This document shows positions 4,761 to 15,485 of a stretch of DNA of 22,505 bases, one piece after another. Source of the stretch: a virus. Its lineage: Duplodnaviria > Heunggongvirae > Uroviricota > Caudoviricetes. Made by a program: the position numbers and the translations under genes. The notes below the pieces were generated by a model that did no database searches, had not been told where the DNA came from, and saw only the letters and a program-made list of their open reading frames with translations. The stretch's first letter is position 1; every line of letters starts with the position of its first letter. The stretch lies in the IMG/VR virus record IMGVR_UViG_2585427793_000014, positions 1 through 22,505 of that record. One strand, written 5' to 3'.

Positions 4761-5186
4761 AGCTGTGTGACGAAGTGACCACTCTTAATAGCATAACCAA
4801 TTTTTTACGTACGTAAACCACTAAATGATATTTGCGAGAATGCTACCGAGTATTGAAAACACCACTACAAATACATAAGCAAATCTCAACAAATAACCAA
4901 CAAATAATTTCCAGTGTTATTTTTAGCCGGTTTAAATTGAACCTTCAAATTATAGAGCACTTATAAATAACAGACATTAATATAAATTGGCTAATAGATT
5001 TATTTTTATTCAGCCAAGAGCCATGAATAGGATTCGATAGAAAAAAGTTCAGATAAAAATAGAGATCTACTTCACAAATCAAACGAGAAACCAAAACTTA
5101 CATCTTGAAATAATCACATTGATTAGATGAATATTTATCGCGCAGTGACATCATTTTTTAATAATAGTTCAAAAAAAGGGCTCACG

Positions 5187-6269
5187 ATGAAAAAATTAAC
5201 AGTGGCAATTTCTGCTGTAGCTGCATCAGTACTGATGGCGATGTCTGCTCAGGCAGCTGAAATTTATAATAAAGACAGTAACAAGCTGGATCTGTACGGG
5301 AAAGTTAATGCTAAGCACTACTTCTCCTCTAATGATGCAGATGATGGTGATACTACTTATGCCCGTCTTGGCTTCAAAGGTGAAACCCAAATCAACGATC
5401 AACTGACTGGTTTCGGTCAGTGGGAATATGAATTCAAAGGCAACCGCGCTGAATCTCAAGGTTCCTCCAAAGATAAAACCCGTCTTGCCTTCGCTGGCCT
5501 GAAATTCGGTGACTACGGCTCCATCGATTACGGCCGTAACTACGGTGTAGCATACGACATCGGTGCGTGGACTGACGTCCTGCCAGAATTCGGTGGTGAC
5601 ACTTGGACTCAAACCGACGTGTTCATGACTCAACGTGCAACTGGTGTTGCAACTTATCGTAACAACGACTTCTTTGGTCTGGTCGATGGCCTGAACTTTG
5701 CTGCTCAGTATCAGGGTAAAAATGACCGCACTGACGTAACTGAAGCCAATGGTGATGGTTTCGGTTTCTCCACTACTTATGAGTATGAAGGATTCGGCGT
5801 GGGTGCAACCTATGCTAAATCAGATCGCACTGACGGTCAGGTCGCCTATGGTAAGAGCAAATTCAATGCCTCCGGCAAAAATGCGGAAGTATGGGCTGCA
5901 GGCCTGAAATATGATGCGAACAATATCTATCTGGCTACCACATATTCTGAAACTCAGAATATGACCGTTTTTGGTAATAACCATATTGCAAACAAAGCAC
6001 AAAACTTTGAAGCAGTAGCACAATATCAGTTTGACTTCGGTCTGCGCCCATCTGTTGCTTACCTTCAGTCAAAAGGTAAAGACCTTGGTGTTCATGGTGA
6101 CCGAGACTTAGTCAAGTATGTCGATGTCGGTGCTACTTACTACTTTAATAAAAACATGTCCACTTTTGTTGATTACAAAATCAACTTAATTGACGATAGT
6201 AAGTTTACCAAAACAGCTGGTATTGATACCGACGACATCGCCGCTGTAGGTCTGGTTTATCAGTTCTAA
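5187..6269 (+). CDS. nmpC: Outer-membrane general porin, OmpC/OmpF/NmpC family (prophage moron)
   Basis: Signal peptide [30 protein letters not shown]..., beta-barrel porin pattern, terminal ...VGLVYQF. Position between Q and S matches nmpC of DLP12 and lc of PA-2 (recalled). ATG 5187 is preferred over the upstream in-frame ATG 5127. Confidence 0.93.
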
Positions 6270-6457: not shown

Positions 6458-6841
6458 TCAATTAGAATTATTAGCAACGATATCCATATCTAACCGGATA
6501 TCTAATGTCATTAACATCCCTTCAATTATGCCCTCAGCCTTCTGTAACCTTTTCCCGATATAACCATCCGAGCAGCAATGCTTACTTGCCAGTGACATGA
6601 ATGTCATACCACATACATAATAATCTACTAATAAATCGTGTAAATCGCTGTTGTTCTTTTTCAGACGGGCCATGCACCCGCAAATGATCATCGCGTCATC
6701 GTCACAACATTGCAGGCGAGATTTTACTTTTGAAGGAATTAATCCCTTAAAACCGGCAGCAATGGACGACCAGGTCACATCCTCATGATTATTTGCCGCC
6801 CATGCACCCCAGCGTTCAAGAACCATCTGAATATCACGCAT
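6458..6841 (-). CDS. Q: Late-gene antiterminator Q (QuuD-like, 127 aa)
   Basis: [41 protein letters not shown]...[16 protein letters not shown] matches my recollection of DLP12 QuuD. Lies upstream of the lysis cassette. The track ORF begins at a TTG (6856); ATG 6841 is preferred. Confidence 0.85.
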
Positions 6842-6858
6842 CAACTTTCTCCACAAAA

Positions 6859-8672: not shown

Positions 8673-9062
8673 TCAGGCGGCTGCACCCGCCGTTTTCTCG
8701 TACTTACTGATAGTGATCTCGACCTTCCCTTCCGGGATAACCGGTCCCCACTCCACCAGCATTCTTTTCACCTGGCTGTCGTCTTCCCACACACCCGCGT
8801 GGGTCAGGGCGTCAAACAGCGCCTTGTTATAGTTGTCCAGATCGCGGATCCGGTTATCCGGAGGAAACAACACGATCTCCACTGAAGCAGGTGCCGACGT
8901 TGGTTTTGGCAGACGACGTAACTGCTCAACTATTGCTGCACACGCCGCGCTCTGGAATTTGCGCCCCGCCGCGCTTATCAGGCTCTTACCTGCAAACGCC
9001 CCTTTGTTGGGGTGTCGCCAGTACGTGTTCACGCTGGGCGGAAAAGGCAGAATCAGCTTCAT
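8673..9062 (-). CDS. rusA: RusA-family Holliday junction resolvase
   Basis: LPFPPSVNTYWRH...RDLDNYNKALFDALTHAGVWEDDSQV... aligns by eye with E. coli RusA (PPS.N.Y.RH; RDLDN..KA.FDALT.AG.W.DD.QV). Confidence 0.85.
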   Translation of the reverse strand: MKLILPFPPSVNTYWRHPNKGAFAGKSLISAAGRKFQSAACAAIVEQLRRLPKPTSAPASVEIVLFPPDNRIRDLDNYNKALFDALTHAGVWEDDSQVKRMLVEWGPVIPEGKVEITISKYEKTAGAAA

Positions 9063-9385
9063 ACTTTCAGGCCCCTCTCATGTAACCAGTAGGCTGCACG
9101 CAGCCTGGCGTTTTCCTCACCGGCAAGCAGTGCGCGGATAATCCCGACCGCCTCGCTGTCGTCGTCCTTCACCGCGGTATGAAGCGTGATCCCCCGGGCC
9201 ACGCCACGCTTTATCGTGATGACGCCTTTTTTCTCCAGTGCGCGAAGATGCTCCACCGCTGTATTCACTGAACGGTATCCCAGCATGGTTGCCACCTCCT
9301 GATTGGTTGGCGGGAAGCCACGTTCTTTCTGATAAGAAATCAGCATATCCAGCACCTGCTGCTGGCATTGAGTTAACGTCGTCAT
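9059..9385 (-). CDS. LexA-like N-terminal DNA-binding domain protein lacking the S24 peptidase domain (108 aa)
   Basis: MTTLTQCQQQVLDMLISYQKERGFPPTNQEVATMLGYRSVNTAVEHLRALEKKGVITIKRGVARGITL aligns by eye at roughly 50% identity with the LexA winged-helix domain (LTARQQEVFDLI...[36 protein letters not shown]...SRGIRL). No Ser/Lys autoprotease region; ATGA overlap with the upstream gene. Confidence 0.6.
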   Translation of the reverse strand: MTTLTQCQQQVLDMLISYQKERGFPPTNQEVATMLGYRSVNTAVEHLRALEKKGVITIKRGVARGITLHTAVKDDDSEAVGIIRALLAGEENARLRAAYWLHERGLKV

Positions 9386-10035
9386 GCCGCCATCTCCCTG
9401 ACCAGTTTTTCCGCCTGCTGGCGAACCTGCGCCAGAAACGCCTCACCACATGCCTCAAGTTCATCGCGCCCGATGTAGCTGATTGCCGGTCCCTTCCAGG
9501 TCTTGTCAAAAACAGCAATAGCACCAGCGAAAAAAGCTCCTGTCGGTACCTGCTTCTCGTCTTTCGGGATAAACCAGACAGGCAGTTCAAAACCAATACG
9601 CCCACGAATAAAAGCAATATGATCTGCATATTCCGGCCACCACACTTCGCTGGTGGCAGCTTTGATCAGGAAAACATAGCGCCCGCCCTTATCACGCATG
9701 GCACTGGCATGTTTCATGATGTAACGCATGCCGGTGATGTATTGCCCATCATGTTGACTGGCGCGGCTGTATGGAGGATTACCAAAGGCAGCACCTTTAA
9801 GCCCCGCAAGGCGTTCTGACCAGTCATGCGCCAGCGCGTTGTCTTCCGCCGTGTAATACGCGGCACATTTGGCGTTATCACCGTCAGTGAACAGATCCAG
9901 AACAAACGGGCCAAACAGGGTGTTAATTCCCCAGAAAATGTTGTCCGGCGTGCACCACTGATCACCCACTTCCTTCAGTTCATGGGCTGGTTTGTTCCGC
10001 AGTTCCACCAGCTCCTGGCAATATTTATTACTCAT
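9382..10035 (-). CDS. dam: Phage Dam-type DNA N6-adenine methyltransferase
   Basis: Contains the catalytic GNPPYS (NPPY) motif; about 218 aa from ATG 10033-10035, which overlaps the upstream stop (TAATG). The track ORF extends to 10068. Confidence 0.8.
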   Translation of the reverse strand: MSNKYCQELVELRNKPAHELKEVGDQWCTPDNIFWGINTLFGPFVLDLFTDGDNAKCAAYYTAEDNALAHDWSERLAGLKGAAFGNPPYSRASQHDGQYITGMRYIMKHASAMRDKGGRYVFLIKAATSEVWWPEYADHIAFIRGRIGFELPVWFIPKDEKQVPTGAFFAGAIAVFDKTWKGPAISYIGRDELEACGEAFLAQVRQQAEKLVREMAA

Positions 10036-10523
10036 TAAGCCCCCACGTAATTCCCTGACAGATACCACTCATCACCCGATACAGCTCGCTTGCTGCTTTT
10101 CCGTAAGCACCGCTCACGACGCGCCAGAAAATTGTTTCGTTCTGGCTGGGAGTGGCTTTCACGGAATGCCGCCATCCACACGGTTGCAGCACGACGGTAT
10201 AAGCCCCTTGACTCCAGTTCTTCAGCCTGGCGGGTCAGGCACAAAATCACCCGGGGATCGTTAGTGCCGACATAGAAATTGCGCACAGGTCTGGTTTCAC
10301 GAACTGGTTGTGGTTCCGGCTCCTGCGCTCTCTCAGTCAGGCGTGGGAAATGTCTGCGTGTATCTCCTTCACAACGGTGAGCCACACGCCCACTCTGACG
10401 TAACTTGCTTGCTGACTGCAGAACGCGCTGCCGTGAGTAACCAGCAAAAGCATCCGCAATGTCTCCGGAAGTACACCCCGGATGGGCTTCAATGAATTTC
10501 TGAACTTCATTCAAAAGACTCAT
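10035..10523 (-). CDS. YfdN-like protein with PerC-like C-terminal region (putative transcriptional regulator)
   Basis: C-terminal ...LESRGLYRRAATVWMAAFRESHSQPERNNFLARRERCLRK resembles the PerC/Pch motif as I recall it; size and position (just after the O-like gene) match CPS-53 yfdN. Start at ATG 10521-10523. Confidence 0.45.
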   Translation of the reverse strand: MSLLNEVQKFIEAHPGCTSGDIADAFAGYSRQRVLQSASKLRQSGRVAHRCEGDTRRHFPRLTERAQEPEPQPVRETRPVRNFYVGTNDPRVILCLTRQAEELESRGLYRRAATVWMAAFRESHSQPERNNFLARRERCLRKSSKRAVSGDEWYLSGNYVGA

Positions 10524-10525
10524 GA

Positions 10526-11518
10526 TCACCCCCTGAATCCTACCGGGATCTGGCTGTAGTCCACGTTGTCGTAACTGGCTTTGAAGTACGGGTCTTCACG
10601 TTTTTCTGTGTGCGTGCTGACGGACGGCGATAAGCGCAGGGAAAGCTCATCCCATTTTTCCCGCAACTTCGACGGGCTGAGCACGTTACGGCACCAGAAC
10701 GGATCACGGCTGACGCGGCTGTACATTTCGCAGATTTGTTTGTGAGTACGACCATCCTGCACACACATCAGGCGAATTTCGTTTGCCCATGCTGTCCAGT
10801 TCGGTTCTTTGGGACGAACCACCTCGCCGTCACATTCGGCGGCCTGCTCGTACAGGGCGATGATTTTTTTCCAGAGACACTGTGCGCAGGTCAAATCATC
10901 CTGCGTTCCCCACTGGCGCTTTTTAGGGCTGAATACAACCGCATCAGGATGGCGAGTTAAAAACTCCTGTTCAGCCGTTTGCGTGTCCGGTTGCGAAGCG
11001 TCCGGACGAGAAGAGGTTTTATTCTCTGTAGTAATCTCTGTTGTATTCTCTGTAAGATCATTGGGCCATTTTGACCCGATGACAGCGTGTCGTTTTGAAC
11101 CAATGGATCGTGTCATTTTGCGCCCATCCATCAGGTCACTTTGACCCGATGGAGAAGTGCATTTTGACCTGATGGATTCGTTCACTTTGACCTCTTCTAA
11201 AAGCTCACTTTCATAGTTGATCGTGTAGAAGTTGGTCATGTCACGCTTCGATTTATTGAGTTGCTCGCGACGCAAAACCCCAAGTGATTTCAGGCTTGCA
11301 AATGTGCGTTTCAGAGTGGACTCTGACCAGAACGGAAACTGCTCCAGCCACTGTTCTGTCGTGTTATAAACCCAGCGAATTCCGCCATGCTCAGTGCCTG
11401 AATTCGTTTCATTCAGCCAGTAATGAAGCTGCTGCAACACAATTGCCTCATTCAGACCAATACGACATGCAAGATCACGATTTATCACAATGGGCTGGGA
11501 TGTCATTAACAGGCTCAT
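10526..11518 (-). CDS. Replication initiator (O-like, iteron-binding replisome organiser)
   Basis: N-terminal winged-helix-like domain (MSLLMTSQPIVINRDLACRIGLNEAIVLQQLHYWL...); origin-type iterons lie inside the coding sequence in the linker region, as in lambda O; position downstream of the cro/CII-like genes. ATGA overlaps at both ends. Confidence 0.75.
   Translation of the reverse strand: MSLLMTSQPIVINRDLACRIGLNEAIVLQQLHYWLNETNSGTEHGGIRWVYNTTEQWLEQFPFWSESTLKRTFASLKSLGVLRREQLNKSKRDMTNFYTINYESELLEEVKVNESIRSKCTSPSGQSDLMDGRKMTRSIGSKRHAVIGSKWPNDLTENTTEITTENKTSSRPDASQPDTQTAEQEFLTRHPDAVVFSPKKRQWGTQDDLTCAQCLWKKIIALYEQAAECDGEVVRPKEPNWTAWANEIRLMCVQDGRTHKQICEMYSRVSRDPFWCRNVLSPSKLREKWDELSLRLSPSVSTHTEKREDPYFKASYDNVDYSQIPVGFRG
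11010..11200. repeat. ori: Putative replication origin: about 6 iterons (consensus YCAYTTTGACCCGATGGA, about 22-bp period) plus 3 upstream TCTCTGT repeats, inside the O-like gene
   Basis: Directly visible repeats: CATTTTGACCCGATGAC (11065), CGTTTTGAACCAATGGATC (11088), CATTTTGCGCCCATCCATC (11110), CACTTTGACCCGATGGAG (11135), CATTTTGACCTGATGGATT (11157), CACTTTGACCTC (11179); also TCTCTGT at three places in 11020-11052. Confidence 0.65.
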
Positions 11519-11739
11519 GCCGCACCTCCGAGATGCTTCATGTTTTTTCCGGAGCGAAAGGCTATAAGCGGCATACTGACGCGGTAATTACGACCCAGCG
11601 GTTCACAAATCACCTTCTGACATTCACGGTCCACCAGGCTAACACGTAGAACATGCCCTGCAGGCGTGGTGTACCACTGACCGGGGCGAGGACAACGGAA
11701 AGTCTGATTGGTAAATCGTTTGAAAATATTCCGGATCAT
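11515..11739 (-). CDS. Hypothetical 74-aa protein
   Basis: Translationally coupled (ATGA overlaps) to both the upstream Rha-domain gene and the downstream O-like gene. No family recognised. Confidence 0.4.
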   Translation of the reverse strand: MIRNIFKRFTNQTFRCPRPGQWYTTPAGHVLRVSLVDRECQKVICEPLGRNYRVSMPLIAFRSGKNMKHLGGAA

Positions 11740-12899
11740 TTGCGCCCCCTTACCTCTGAAGAGTTCAGCGACGAATGAATAAGACGGGCAAGAAATGCCG
11801 CATCGTTAATTCGGTCATACAGACTTACAGCCAGAGGTGATTCAGCTTTTTCCAGCATGGGATAAAGCTGCTGCAACCAGACCTGATGAATTGATGAAAT
11901 GTAGGAATAGAGAACACTGGCGTTATGTGCAACGTCGCTCGGTACAGCGGGCTTTGAAAGCTGTTTCTCCATCTGGTTAAAGGCATTGATGTATGCCTCT
12001 TTGAACTGGGCAGCACGTTTACCCGTGAAACCCATAGCAAGAAACGCAAAGCCATCGCGGGTTATTTGATAGCAAGGTAGTTTGCGAGTACCGCCGTTGG
12101 GCTGGCGTACCAAAATTGATGTCTCCGCAAAATTGCGGGCACAAAACTCTGGAGAACAATCCAAAATGCGAATCTTTTTCAGAACATCGTCATGACGTTT
12201 AGAGAAGAAGTCAGCAACAGCCAAAGAAGATGTAACAGCCTGACCATCAACGATGGCAATTTCAGGTTGAGAGAGGGTTGGGAGAGTAGTCATAGTGACA
12301 GCCCCGGTAGTCAGTTTTTTAGAAAACTCACCACATGGGACGCCAATCACAGAGGTGGTGAGACGTACAGGGTTGGCGTTACCGGAGACTACCGAACCCG
12401 GCCCGACCGAAGTCGGCCCTGTACGCCCCACCATAATTTGGGCGTAGCAATGCTCATGACACGAAAAAACCGCATGAGCGCGGTTATGCTCAGTAATCAA
12501 TTTCAGGACGCCAATCCCGGCACCCGCTTTATAAGGTGCCTGAACAGTGTAACGTCCCGGAATGGCAGAATCAATGTGCTGGTGGTCCTTCACACTCAAC
12601 AAAATCACGCCTGAATTTCCACAAAGGACTAAAGCACTCATGCGGGTAGTCTTTGCGAAGATAGATAACGCGCTGAGTTTCTGGCTCCCAACGAATAACA
12701 TGGACATAAAGCCCTCTTCCATCACGAAACCAGCGGTTAAGTTCCTGCACAACTCGCCCCCCACAGTCAGGTAAAGTTCTCTGTGGTTACTTACAGCCAG
12801 GTGATTTGGTAATCTGCATTCATGCCGTAACAACAGGTGTTCAGCGACACTGACCACCAGCTGTTGCGACAAACGGTTATTTGCCGTTAAACTGTTCAT
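11736..12899 (-). CDS. Rha-domain phage regulatory protein with about 200-aa N-terminal extension
   Basis: Residues about 205-320 (LSQPEIAIVDGQAVTSSLAVADFFSKRHDDVLKKIRILD...GTRKLPCYQITRDGFAFLAMGFTGKRAAQFKEAYINAFNQME) match the Rha pattern. ATG 12897-12899 overlaps the CII-like stop (ATGA). The N-terminal 200 aa have atypical composition. Confidence 0.55.
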   Translation of the reverse strand: MNSLTANNRLSQQLVVSVAEHLLLRHECRLPNHLAVSNHRELYLTVGGELCRNLTAGFVMEEGFMSMLFVGSQKLSALSIFAKTTRMSALVLCGNSGVILLSVKDHQHIDSAIPGRYTVQAPYKAGAGIGVLKLITEHNRAHAVFSCHEHCYAQIMVGRTGPTSVGPGSVVSGNANPVRLTTSVIGVPCGEFSKKLTTGAVTMTTLPTLSQPEIAIVDGQAVTSSLAVADFFSKRHDDVLKKIRILDCSPEFCARNFAETSILVRQPNGGTRKLPCYQITRDGFAFLAMGFTGKRAAQFKEAYINAFNQMEKQLSKPAVPSDVAHNASVLYSYISSIHQVWLQQLYPMLEKAESPLAVSLYDRINDAAFLARLIHSSLNSSEVRGRK

Positions 12900-13781: not shown

Positions 13782-14456
13782 ATGAAAACAGTCCATGACA
13801 TCCGGCGGTCTAACGCCAGAAAACTGAGAGATGGTGTTGGCGGGAATTCTTCCTTTGCCACCATGATTGATCGCGAGCCAACCCAGACCAGCAGGTTTAT
13901 GGGAGATGGTGCTACTAAAAATATCGGTGACAGCATGGCACGGCACATCGAAAAATGTTTCGACCTGCCTGTCGGATGGCTTGATCAAGAACACCAGACA
14001 ACAAACATCACAAAAAAACCTGATGTTTCAATTACTAACAAACAAATAACGTTAGTCCCTGTCATATCATGGGTACAGGCCGGAGCATGGAAAGAAGTTG
14101 GCTATTCTGAGGTTGATTTGAGCACAGCAGAAACTTATCCCTGCCCTGTACCCTGTGGCGAAATGACTTATATCTTGCGGGTGATTGGTGATTCAATGAT
14201 TGATGAGTACCGCCCGGGAGACATGATTTTTGTTGATCCTGAAGTCCCTGCCTGCCACGGTGACGACGTTATTGCATTGATGCACGATACAGGCGAAACC
14301 ACCTTCAAGCGGTTGATAGAAGATGGAACACAGCGTTATCTCAAAGCATTAAACCCAAACTGGCCTGAGCCTTACATTAAGATTAACGGTAATTGCTCTA
14401 TAATTGGTACAGTAATTTTCTCAGGAAAACCAAGAAGATACAAAATAAAGGCCTAA
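13782..14456 (+). CDS. cI: CI-type prophage repressor with C-terminal S24 (LexA-like) autopeptidase domain
   Basis: C-terminal VIGDSMIDEYRPGDMIFVDPE...ETTFKRLIEDGTQRYLKALNPNWPEPYIKING..CSIIGTVI aligns by eye with lambda CI (GNSM...[23 protein letters not shown]...CSVVGKVI). N-terminal DNA-binding region; divergent from cro. Confidence 0.9.
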   Translation: MKTVHDIRRSNARKLRDGVGGNSSFATMIDREPTQTSRFMGDGATKNIGDSMARHIEKCFDLPVGWLDQEHQTTNITKKPDVSITNKQITLVPVISWVQAGAWKEVGYSEVDLSTAETYPCPVPCGEMTYILRVIGDSMIDEYRPGDMIFVDPEVPACHGDDVIALMHDTGETTFKRLIEDGTQRYLKALNPNWPEPYIKINGNCSIIGTVIFSGKPRRYKIKA

Positions 14457-14469
14457 TCAATATTTATAA

Positions 14470-14491
14470 CCTGCTTCGGCAGGTTTTTTTA
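14470..14491 (+). terminator. Intrinsic terminator downstream of cI
   Basis: CCTGC-TTCG-GCAGG hairpin followed by a run of seven T. Confidence 0.7.
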
Positions 14492-14494
14492 TAC

Positions 14495-14528
14495 TTGACA
14501 ATGTACCCTTGAGATACATAATGTATCT
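14495..14528 (+). promoter_or_regulatory. PL-like early-left promoter with overlapping operator
   Basis: -35 TTGACA (14495-14500), 16-17 bp spacer, -10 CATAAT/ATAATG (14517-14523). The spacer contains ATGTACC (same half-site as in the OR region) and the palindrome AGATACATAATGTATCT (14512-14528) overlaps the -10. Confidence 0.6.
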
Positions 14529-15122
14529 AAAAGAAACATGCCACAGGCAAGATTAAACAAAATTTGCTTGTAACACGGCGTATGGCACATGCGTCGTTAG
14601 CGGTCTGGGGACGTTAAAGGGGACAATCCACTCCTTGCTCGGGCAAACAAACCAGGTAGCCGGAATGTGCAAGTCAATGAGGATGCTGATAAGACGCCTA
14701 ACCAGCGTGGCGATTCGGTTTGACGCCTGGGAAGAGACCAGGGTGCAACGATGAGGGCATTTATGGAGCCGCGACAAAGTGTGGTGCCGTAACTGGCTAA
14801 GTGCTCTCAGCGTTGTGGTAATCCGCGAAATGGCGCGGCGGTAAGTATGGCGGGGGTACTCTTTCCCCCTTGAGGACACCGGATTGTCAGGTTGACCATA
14901 CGCCTGAGTGACAACCCCACCACAACAGCCACTGCTTTGGCGGTACCAGTTTGTGCACTTGCTTCCGGCTGGTACCGCTCTTTTTACAAAACAGAGAAGA
15001 GCATCACCGGACGACGGGCTCATAACCCAATCCATCCGGGCGGCTGCCACCGCAGGTGTTCTTCTCTGTTTTGTGGAGAAACCAACCGACCTTGCAGGGT
15101 CGATATGATGAGGAGCAGCAAA
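14529..15122 (+). promoter_or_regulatory. Long (about 590 nt) structured untranslated leader of the early-left operon; no N-like ORF
   Basis: No plausible ORF on either strand (only compositionally junk ORFs). Several stable inverted repeats: GGGGGTACTCTTTCCCCC (about 14863-14881); GCGGTACCAG/CTGGTACCGC (14940-14949 / 14975-14984) followed by TCTTTTTAC; ACAAAACAGAGAAGAG / TTCTTCTCTGTTTTGT (about 14986-15001 / 15061-15076). A boxA-like CGCTCTTTTTACAA lies at about 14981-14994. Confidence 0.35.
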
Positions 15123-15485
15123 ATGGCTAGCGAACGCAGTACTGATGTGCAGGCATTTATCGGGGAGTTGGACGGCGGCGTATTTGAAACCAAAATCGGC
15201 GCAGTTCTCAGTGAAGTCGCTTCAGGTGTGATGAACACGAAAACCAAAGGTAAGGTCTCACTCAACCTGGAAATCGAACCATTTGATGAGAACCGTGTGA
15301 AAATCAAACACAAACTCTCATATGTTCGCCCGACTAACCGCGGGAAAATTTCTGAAGAAGACACCACCGAAACGCCGATGTATGTCAATCGCGGTGGTCG
15401 CCTGACTATTCTGCAGGAAGACCAGGGACAATTACTGACTCTTGCCGGTGAACCTGACGGAAAACTCCGCGCAGCAGGTCATTAA
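15123..15485 (+). CDS. Hypothetical 120-aa protein (YfdP-like by position and size)
   Basis: GAGGAG ribosome-binding site 8 nt upstream of ATG 15123; first gene after the leader; followed by the YfdQ-like gene. No arginine-rich motif, so not an N homolog. Confidence 0.5.
   Translation: MASERSTDVQAFIGELDGGVFETKIGAVLSEVASGVMNTKTKGKVSLNLEIEPFDENRVKIKHKLSYVRPTNRGKISEEDTTETPMYVNRGGRLTILQEDQGQLLTLAGEPDGKLRAAGH

Follow-up and report, generated by a model that had tools for sequence, protein, structure and literature searches.

In phage lambda, the leader between the early-left promoter (PL) and the first gene of its operon holds nutL, and it contains a hairpin that is sensitive to RNase III and affects the translation of N. 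HK022, a lambdoid phage without an N antiterminator, has non-coding put RNAs just past its early promoters: they are about 70 nucleotides (nt) long, form two stem-loops in a V shape, and are found both past PL and, as a similar copy, past the early-right promoter (PR) (PMC9378689). A put RNA acts in cis and suppresses terminators by way of the beta' zinc-binding domain. In the Qin prophage of Escherichia coli K-12, DicF RNA derives from the polycistronic dicBp transcript; the 190-nt species of DicF requires RNase III and the 53-nt species requires RNase E, and transcripts of 1,146 nt (ydfABC-dicF) and 1,608 nt (into dicB-ydfD) were inferred from the sizes of Northern bands (PMC10448788). Here we compare these systems, and the ban operon leader of phages P1 and P7, with the early-left leader at positions 14529-15122 of a 22,505-nt stretch of viral DNA (IMG/VR record IMGVR_UViG_2585427793_000014, Caudoviricetes; the whole stretch is called the window below).

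In its construction, this leader appears to resemble both the P1 ban leader and the non-coding stretch of the dicBF operon, and this is our best-supported conclusion. In BLAST comparisons with phage genomes, it breaks up into segments that are found apart from one another in other phages, and it is a mosaic of at least four independently mobile modules, part of which is homologous to the dicF locus of Qin. (The first-pass annotation of this DNA had taken the leader to be a single element.) We call the pieces, in order, A, S1, B, T, and C (Table 1). The architectures that we counted were A-B-T-C (36), A-T-C (26), A-tRNAArg-T (26), and tRNAIle followed by A (25). We lean towards the view that the leader is the precursor of several stable non-coding RNAs, or an "RNA operon" between PL and the first early-left gene. 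The basis for this at the locus itself is the non-coding nature of the leader, its conserved structures with compensatory changes, the modular distribution of its parts, and its homology to the locus of dicF. Early-left operons were already known to hold loci of the DicF type; the composite architecture directly after PL appears to be undescribed.

Because the terminator of a repressor gene and a promoter lie just upstream and the yfdP-like gene starts at 15123, we take 14529-15122 to be the leader of a PL-type operon, and the location of the promoter puts the expected 5' end of the transcript near 14529. The leader is non-coding. Its open reading frames (ORFs; a program listed one of 165 amino acids on the - strand and one of 66 on the + strand) had no match in a Pfam search, the - strand ORF is broken in mEp460, and the length of module A varies from 157 to 185 nt among homologues, with all residues modulo 3. 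A protein-coding reading of the leader was rejected on these grounds: no Pfam match, frames that are not kept, and length changes that are not multiples of three. We also looked for an N-like arginine-rich ORF among the translations of the leader ORFs and did not find one, nor was an arginine-rich motif seen in the yfdP-like protein. The G+C content is 0.55-0.57 over 14600-15100 versus 0.35-0.48 in the flanks, and the leader is rich in G and poor in C (G over C skew of +0.2). Rho loads on C-rich sites, so Rho loading on this long untranslated RNA would be disfavored. The + strand of the leader folds at -234.7 kcal/mol (z = -4.96; 0 of 100 shuffles folded as well), and the - strand folds less well (z = -3.35). 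An inverted-repeat search recovered a 10-nt pair with 100% complementarity (14940-14949/14969-14978) and a 25-nt pair with 84% complementarity (14986-15010/15050-15074). So the first-pass annotation was right that the early-left operon starts with a long, structured, GC-rich, and non-coding leader, that an N gene is missing from it (no N-like arginine-rich ORF and no Pfam match), and that it holds a terminator-like stem and a second pair of arms at the coordinates given.

Module A is a multi-helix RNA. Its helices are hairpin H1, stem H2 (with loop motif YCCUUG), closing stem J, H4, and H6 (loop GAAGAGA); J is small, with three pairs, and encloses a variable hairpin and H4 (loop YUCACCA). Long unpaired stretches are invariant, including GGUAGCCGGAAUGUGCAAG at 14655-14673, and a long-range pairing of GGCACAU with AUGUGCC, both of them invariant, is possible. 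We tested a hand-derived structure for covariation with 28 diverse sequences and 500 shuffles. In the real alignment, 93.7% of cells were paired, and 12 pairs were changed on both sides (68 cells); none of the 500 shuffles reached any of these measures, and structures that were slid by 1-3 columns paired 25-42%. The frequent G-U pairs are compatible with the + strand only. A covariance model of module A (R1) gives the copy in the window 149 bits, which is its single hit there. R1 had no hit in HK022, SfV, ST64B, or the K-12 CPS-53 (yfdP) locus; the Qin locus was outside this search. With Rfam 15, nothing in 14300-15300 scored better than E = 0.5 or 24 bits, even at E ≤ 10, so that no family was recovered at either gathering or permissive thresholds, and in eight homologous loci the only matches were to tRNA, C4, and isrK, with none for the leader. 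In the literature on yfdP, on mEp460/SfV/cdtI, on the P1 ban operon, and on an invariant 15-mer, we found no description of the modules. Module A is thus an RNA family without an Rfam entry, and apparently an undescribed one. The first-pass suggestion of a riboregulator or an unrecognized non-coding RNA came near the truth.

We mapped the distribution of module A by scanning for exact 19-21-mers. The invariant 19-mer GGTAGCCGGAATGTGCAAG is present in at least 120 IMG/VR contigs. Module A was found at 23 loci from about 19 species of Enterobacterales, with hosts that include Kosakonia, Citrobacter, Klebsiella, Kluyvera, Phytobacter, Buttiauxella, Enterobacter, and 'Candidatus Erwinia dacicola'. 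R1 describes an RNA family that carries no annotation in the 25 RefSeq records listed, yet of 5426 complete E. coli genomes 1375 have it, with 255 of the places on plasmids. Module A is shared by three phage lineages that are unrelated. In lambdoids such as mEp460 and mEp390, module A lies 3' of cI and PL. In the ban operon of P1 and P7, it begins 1 nt past the CCA of tRNA-Ile, and about 100 nt separate its end from ban. The Uetakeviruses, among them SPN1S, O157 typing phage 9, and Klebsiella BUCT711, carry it in a unit that runs antisense between structural genes, in the order: promoter-like sequence with an operator-like palindrome, A, S1, tRNA-Arg(UCU), and a T-type terminator. Where a tRNA abuts module A, processing of the tRNA would also set an end of the module, which is what one expects if a stable RNA is released. 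The flank AAAUUUGCUUGUAAC that precedes module A in the window is shared with the P1 copy and is conserved in P1 and mEp460.

In Klebsiella phage ST512-KPC3phi13.3 (L129, 1916-1953), a strong terminator (GCCCGGTTCGTCCGGGC and seven T) lies about 11 nt before a DUF2829 gene, which is downstream of the A-tRNAArg-T unit. By its position, the DUF2829 gene seems to depend on read-through of two terminators.

The middle of the leader resembles the dicF locus. Module B has 87.8% identity over 123 nt (E = 1e-40) with the spacer that directly precedes dicF in Qin of K-12 (L245, 2752-2874), and 75% identity with the beginning of the ban operon leader of P1 (L004, 230-323). The hairpin S1, whose arms show compensatory changes in relatives, occupies the position of the Qin hairpin upstream of module B. 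After a short single-stranded stretch (about 14918-14938) comes T, whose stem (-24 kcal/mol, z = -4.8) is followed by UCUUUUUAC; on paper, it is predicted to be a good intrinsic terminator. T aligns with dicF, with the terminator after tRNA-Arg in the Uetakevirus units, and with SfV. T and dicF have in common a 5' arm (UUUGGCGGUAYCAGUUU) and a tail (CCGC(C/U)CUUUUU), and covariation of the T arms is seen across SfV, ST64B, many prophages, and the Uetakevirus units. The features of a DicF-type locus are therefore found here: an early operon under repressor control, a conserved spacer upstream, and a GGCGG..CCGCC terminator with a U tract at the end.

Other features of the two loci agree as well. 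The dicBF operon is controlled by a cI-like repressor (DicA) and lies on the same side of the immunity region, its terminator hairpin (GGCGG...CCGCC) is at the equivalent place, and long hairpins bracket its domains. Counting 190 nt back from the 3' end of dicF leads to the 3' arm of the Qin hairpin that precedes module B, so by length arithmetic, the RNase III-dependent 5' end of the 190-nt DicF would map to the Qin counterpart of S1. In contrast to Qin, the leader in the window follows PL directly, without the ydfABC genes, and modules A and C are absent from the stretch of Qin that we examined. The P1/P7 ban leader is also repressor-controlled. Right after Pban come a segment that resembles B and a region annotated as 'dicF-like', with a terminator; the leader also has module A, at 78% identity (143.6 bits with R1), between tRNA-Ile and ban. 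It differs in that the order is reversed (B and T first, A last), tRNA genes and tciABC lie between the modules, and S1 and C are missing.

The first-pass annotation had also noted a boxA-like string. The string does exist (CGCTCTTTTTACAA, near 14977-14990); however, it consists of the 3' arm and the U-tract of terminator T, and it varies in homologues, where its counterparts are CCGCCCTTTTTAC, CCGTCCTTTTTAC, or GCCGACCTTTTTAC. Because it is a terminator tail and is not conserved, we consider the resemblance to boxA to be coincidental. A boxA-boxB arrangement was rejected as well: CGCTCTTTTTACAA is followed by the 20-bp stem of module C, and not by a short hairpin of the boxB type. In sum, the leader has the same position as the nutL-N leader of lambda, from PL to the first gene, but it is about three times longer and has no N and no boxB.

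Module C is a three-way junction. It consists of stem P1 (19-25 bp, 14987-15005/15055-15073), stem P2 (15007-15039, with the terminal GGG-CUCAUAA-CCC), and a variable hairpin P3 (15040-15053). Positions 15015-15028 are identical, at 14 of 14 nt, to the anticodon arm of E. coli tRNAfMet (positions 29-42 of metZ/W/V; CGGGCTCATAACCC). Across 51 distinct homologues of module C, pairing reaches 96% in stem P1 and at the base of P2, with compensatory changes in 8 of 24 pairs, and the G-U pairs are compatible with the + strand. Mimics of tRNA anticodon arms are known, with the thrS operator as an example. Module C is like them in its 14 nt of identity to the tRNAfMet anticodon stem-loop, but it has no D arm, T loop, or CCA end, and its 'acceptor' stem is about 20 bp long. 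ARAGORN found 0 tRNA genes in the window, and the Rfam tRNA model had no hit there. The junction with a tRNAfMet arm appears to be undescribed.

In the PL-leader version, GUGGAGAAAC always comes next after module C, and then come a small hairpin whose loop is U(U/G)GCAG and the ribosome-binding site of a yfdP-like gene. Relatives have GGCGG-U(U/G)GCAG-CCGCC at the site of this hairpin, with stems that covary, and some variants have the same loop in P3 of module C. The hairpin may be a protein-binding site. No second nut-like U(U/G)GCAG hairpin was found elsewhere on the + strand. A short-stem version of module C, with a 6-bp 'acceptor' stem and an ACCA or GCCA tail, occurs in Klebsiella phages after tRNA-Asn and tRNA-Arg, downstream of Q; it is unannotated and was not called by the Rfam tRNA model. 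In Klebsiella phage RCIP0034 (L006, about 1510-1590), we saw a tRNA-like gene that lacks a D arm and has a 6-bp acceptor-like stem, an anticodon-type arm with CAU, and an ACCA tail.

Table 1. Features of the early-left leader and its immediate surroundings, in window coordinates
Feature	Position	Strand	Basis or details
cI-like repressor gene	13782-14456	+	Peptidase_S24
Intrinsic terminator of the cI-like repressor gene	14468-14491	+	stem AACCTGCTTCGGCAGGTT, then T-run
PL-type early-left promoter, TTGACA-16-CATAAT	14495-14522	+	near-consensus, 11/12 matches
Operator-like inverted repeat, 19 nt, overlapping PL	14501-14539	+	inverted-repeat search
Transcript 5' end: small A/U-rich hairpin (14543-14571), then AAAUUUGCUUGUAAC	14529-14571	+	weak fold, z = -1.9
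Module A, 177-nt multi-helix structured RNA	14572-14748	+	covariation, covariance model R1
S1, long hairpin, arms CAACGAUGAGGGCAUU / AGUGCUCUCAGCGUUG, variable insert	14744-14817	+	-34.2 kcal/mol, z = -4.1
Module B, closed by GUUGUGG/CCACAAC	14812-14934	+	homology to Qin and P1
T, predicted DicF-type intrinsic terminator, 13-bp stem GGCGGUACCAGUU.../...GGCUGGUACCGCU, then CUUUUUAC	14939-14987	+	fold, alignment
Module C, three-way junction	14981-15079	+	-51 kcal/mol, z = -7.8
Small hairpin with a UUGCAG hexaloop, past module C and ahead of the yfdP Shine-Dalgarno sequence	15087-15102	+	also listed on - strand
yfdP-like first early-left gene, 120 amino acids	15123-15485	+	phrog_204; no Pfam match

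Shared building blocks are also apparent at a finer scale. The arm sequences ACAAC..AAGAG and CUCUU..GUUGUGG recur around variable inserts, including fragments that resemble tRNA T arms, and they form the long stem of module C. In SPN1S (L128, about 1615-1715) and in an IMG/VR contig (L097), the S1 hairpin holds a 95-nt insert with two T-arm-like hairpins (CTGGTTCAATTCCAG and GTCAGTTCGATTCGGAC), which are tRNA-derived fragments within a conserved stem. The stretch between dicF and dicB in Qin of K-12 (L245, 2940-3105) forms a domain whose closing stem is about 18 bp long (GUGAAUUUUGUGAUG.../...CAUCACAAAAUUCAU). A relative of this domain lies ahead of T in SfV and ST64B (GUGGUGAAUGCGGCUCAGCGCACGCGG...), so a common set of building blocks has been put together in more than one order. 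In SfV (L003, 3040-3130) and ST64B (L007, 930-1010), a near-identical PL is followed by another first module of about 60 nt with two stem-loops, of the pattern ..GUAGCCGCC(U/G)G..GGAUGAUUCG.., which has a GGAUGA motif in common with putL and putR of HK022. The 5' modules of SfV and the window thus differ after an almost identical start (88.7% identity over the first 96 nt of the leader), and the SfV leader has an extra 600 nt or so with orf33.

If the leader is a precursor of stable RNAs, we propose that a single transcript from about 14529 would carry A, S1, B, the DicF-type terminator T, and the tRNA-like junction C as independently folding domains. After derepression of the prophage, many transcripts would end at T and give a non-coding RNA of about 460 nt, and the remainder would read through T into yfdP and further genes. 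RNase III would cut the long perfect stems (S1 and stem P1 of module C), and RNase E would cut the A/U-rich linkers; this cleavage would free A and B+T as discrete stable RNAs and would separate the yfdP mRNA from the structured leader. In relatives, the adjoining tRNAs would supply ends made by RNase P or by 3' processing. Module A, and probably module C, would act through their invariant unpaired nucleotides on a conserved component of the host. We infer the RNase processing, the leakiness of T, and the trans action of A and C from the comparisons above. More tentatively, module A may be an undescribed class of phage RNA that acts on a conserved host machine, for example RNA polymerase (as a new antiterminator independent of N) or the machinery of tRNA processing or translation, and module C may be a functional mimic of the initiator tRNA arm. 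If so, a module of about 180 nt that is common to SfV/mEp460-type lambdoids, P1-like phage-plasmids, and Uetakeviruses would act through 19-25 invariant nt, and module C would control early-left translation or be a decoy for enzymes that recognize tRNAfMet. VapC-type nucleases cleave the anticodon arm of tRNAfMet.

Several results weigh against a precursor of stable, DicF-like RNAs. The RNase cleavage is extrapolated wholly from Qin, and S1 and the Qin hairpin differ in sequence except for their CAAC...GUUGUGG ends. Module B does not fold better than shuffled sequences (z = -0.3), and its homologues are too alike for covariation. T has lost about 19 nt, deleted in the alignment, that contain the 5' seed of DicF (UUUCUGGUGACG). 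The Rfam model of DicF (RF00039) had no hit to T at E ≤ 10, even in a 121-nt search, which the deleted seed and the changed loop and 3' arm would explain. Pairing of the T region with the ftsZ leader was no better than for shuffled sequences, although this is a weak test. For the invariant loops of module A, complementarity to the 16S, 23S, and 5S rRNAs, rnpB, the ssrA region, and four tRNAs of E. coli was not above that of shuffled probes, and the 14-mer of tRNAfMet was the only same-sense similarity of the leader to E. coli rRNAs, rnpB, the ssrA region, and tRNAs. Finally, a conserved terminator before the first gene and genes right after the Uetakevirus terminators would also fit regulated read-through.

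Regulated read-through is the core of the alternative in which module A or the whole leader is a cis-acting processive antiterminator that replaces N, akin to put or to the Bacillus EAR element but unrelated to either, and lets RNA polymerase pass T and later terminators. The missing N-like gene and the conserved terminator between promoter and first gene are as expected for this, A is upstream of T and of genes on the same strand in both lambdoids and Uetakeviruses, and a gene in a Klebsiella Uetakevirus lies about 11 nt past a second terminator and hence would need read-through. The invariance of the unpaired stretches suggests that they bind a conserved host machine, and the authors of a study of phage LLS speculate on a put-like mechanism for an N-less lambdoid (PMC12315714). 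Like put, the leader is non-coding RNA just past an early promoter of a lambdoid without N. However, module A is a single-copy element of 177 nt with at least five helices, accompanied by other modules, and BLAST against the PL-nun and cro-downstream regions of HK022 gave only chance-level matches of 10-14 nt. putL and putR align with each other, and by eye they do not resemble the leader. We therefore rejected membership in the put class, as size and fold, copy number, and sequence similarity to putL/putR all disagree; the put-like element that the first-pass annotation had suggested did not hold up. No second copy of any part of the leader was found in the window, including downstream of PR, though PR faces the isrK terminator. 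In P1, a T-like terminator is 2.3 kb upstream of A, and there is no terminator between A and ban. Transcription of Qin passes the DicF terminator without a module A, and in SfV and ST64B, which share PL, T, and C with the window, A is missing. Overall, we think that an antiterminator is unlikely. An attenuator that senses a ligand or a factor, with A as the sensor and the alternative pairings of GUUGUGG together with T as the expression platform, seems very unlikely to us. Module A is a complex junction with many invariant unpaired nucleotides, as in an aptamer, and GUUG in the 3' arm of S1 is also part of the closing stem of B (GUUGUGG/CCACAAC), so that two helices would compete, with T following. 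But A and T are about 190 nt apart, or are separated by an entire tRNA gene in Uetakeviruses; in P1, A comes directly before the ribosome-binding site of ban, without S1 or T; and no Rfam riboswitch matched. Also, the genes downstream of A are unrelated across its contexts, which implies that there is no common regulated function.

The mosaicism could instead mean that the region is a recombination scar of decayed small RNA and tRNA genes, plus conserved 'linker' hairpins for mosaic exchange, with little function of its own. The exchange is extreme, with different 5' modules behind a near-identical PL in SfV and the window; repeated arm sequences flank variable inserts, some of them T-arm-like; and T has lost the seed of DicF. 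Yet across more than 10 genera and three phage lineages that are unrelated, compensatory changes maintain the pairing of A while 19-25 nt stay invariant, and such changes maintain the pairing of C in its 51 distinct variants. This amounts to purifying selection on the RNA in these contexts, so we consider a mere scar quite unlikely. There is also next to no chance, in our judgment, that a small protein, N-like or other, is made from a non-canonical start in the leader. Hypothetical ORFs are annotated here in some phage records, and PHROG families exist for them, but the strand and the extent of these ORFs vary between records; no Pfam domain was found, lengths do not vary in steps of three, and substitutions compensate RNA pairing.

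Lambdoid prophages without an N gene are numerous in E. coli, Shigella, and Salmonella, and they include Stx2c- and CDT-converting phages. In the group studied here, the space after PL consists of organized and conserved RNA domains, and the comparison ties it to the dicBF paradigm of early-left prophage RNAs that act on the host. It also points to a mimic of the anticodon arm of tRNAfMet ahead of the first early gene, within its 5' untranslated region. A new antitermination RNA or new trans-acting phage RNAs would, if true, be of general interest in either case.

The window is part of a lambdoid prophage of the SfV/cdtI/Ayreon/mEp460 type, and its leader is 98-99% identical to those of phages cdtI and Ayreon. 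The terminator of the repressor gene is annotated as such in Ayreon and SfV, and the PL-type promoter is annotated as a promoter in Ayreon. The genes for Cro, CII, the antirepressor, and replication, as well as Q (6458-6856), are all on the - strand. On the other side, the yfdP-like gene is followed by yfdQ (DUF2303) and then by a yfdR-like gene (187 amino acids, with weak matches to YfbR-like/HD domains). In CPS-53 of K-12, the home of yfdP, the leader is deleted.

Elsewhere in the window, the CII-like gene and the antirepressor of the PR operon have two known RNAs between them: C4 antisense RNA at 12351-12438 (- strand, 82 bits) and isrK RNA at 12463-12539 (- strand, 59 bits). Both are inside a 387-amino-acid ORF listed by the program (11736-12899), so the N-terminal half of this ORF is probably non-coding. 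The stem and U-run with which isrK ends would terminate PR transcription ahead of Q and the replication genes. Downstream of Q and on the opposite strand is a gene for an OmpC-type porin (5127-6269, + strand; Porin_1, E = 1.7e-151), towards ORFs that we presume to be lysis genes; it looks like a moron for lysogenic conversion. The PR operon also encodes, at 9059-10529 (- strand), a protein of 108 amino acids that has the LexA DNA-binding domain only, a Dam-type methyltransferase, and a PerC-like activator.

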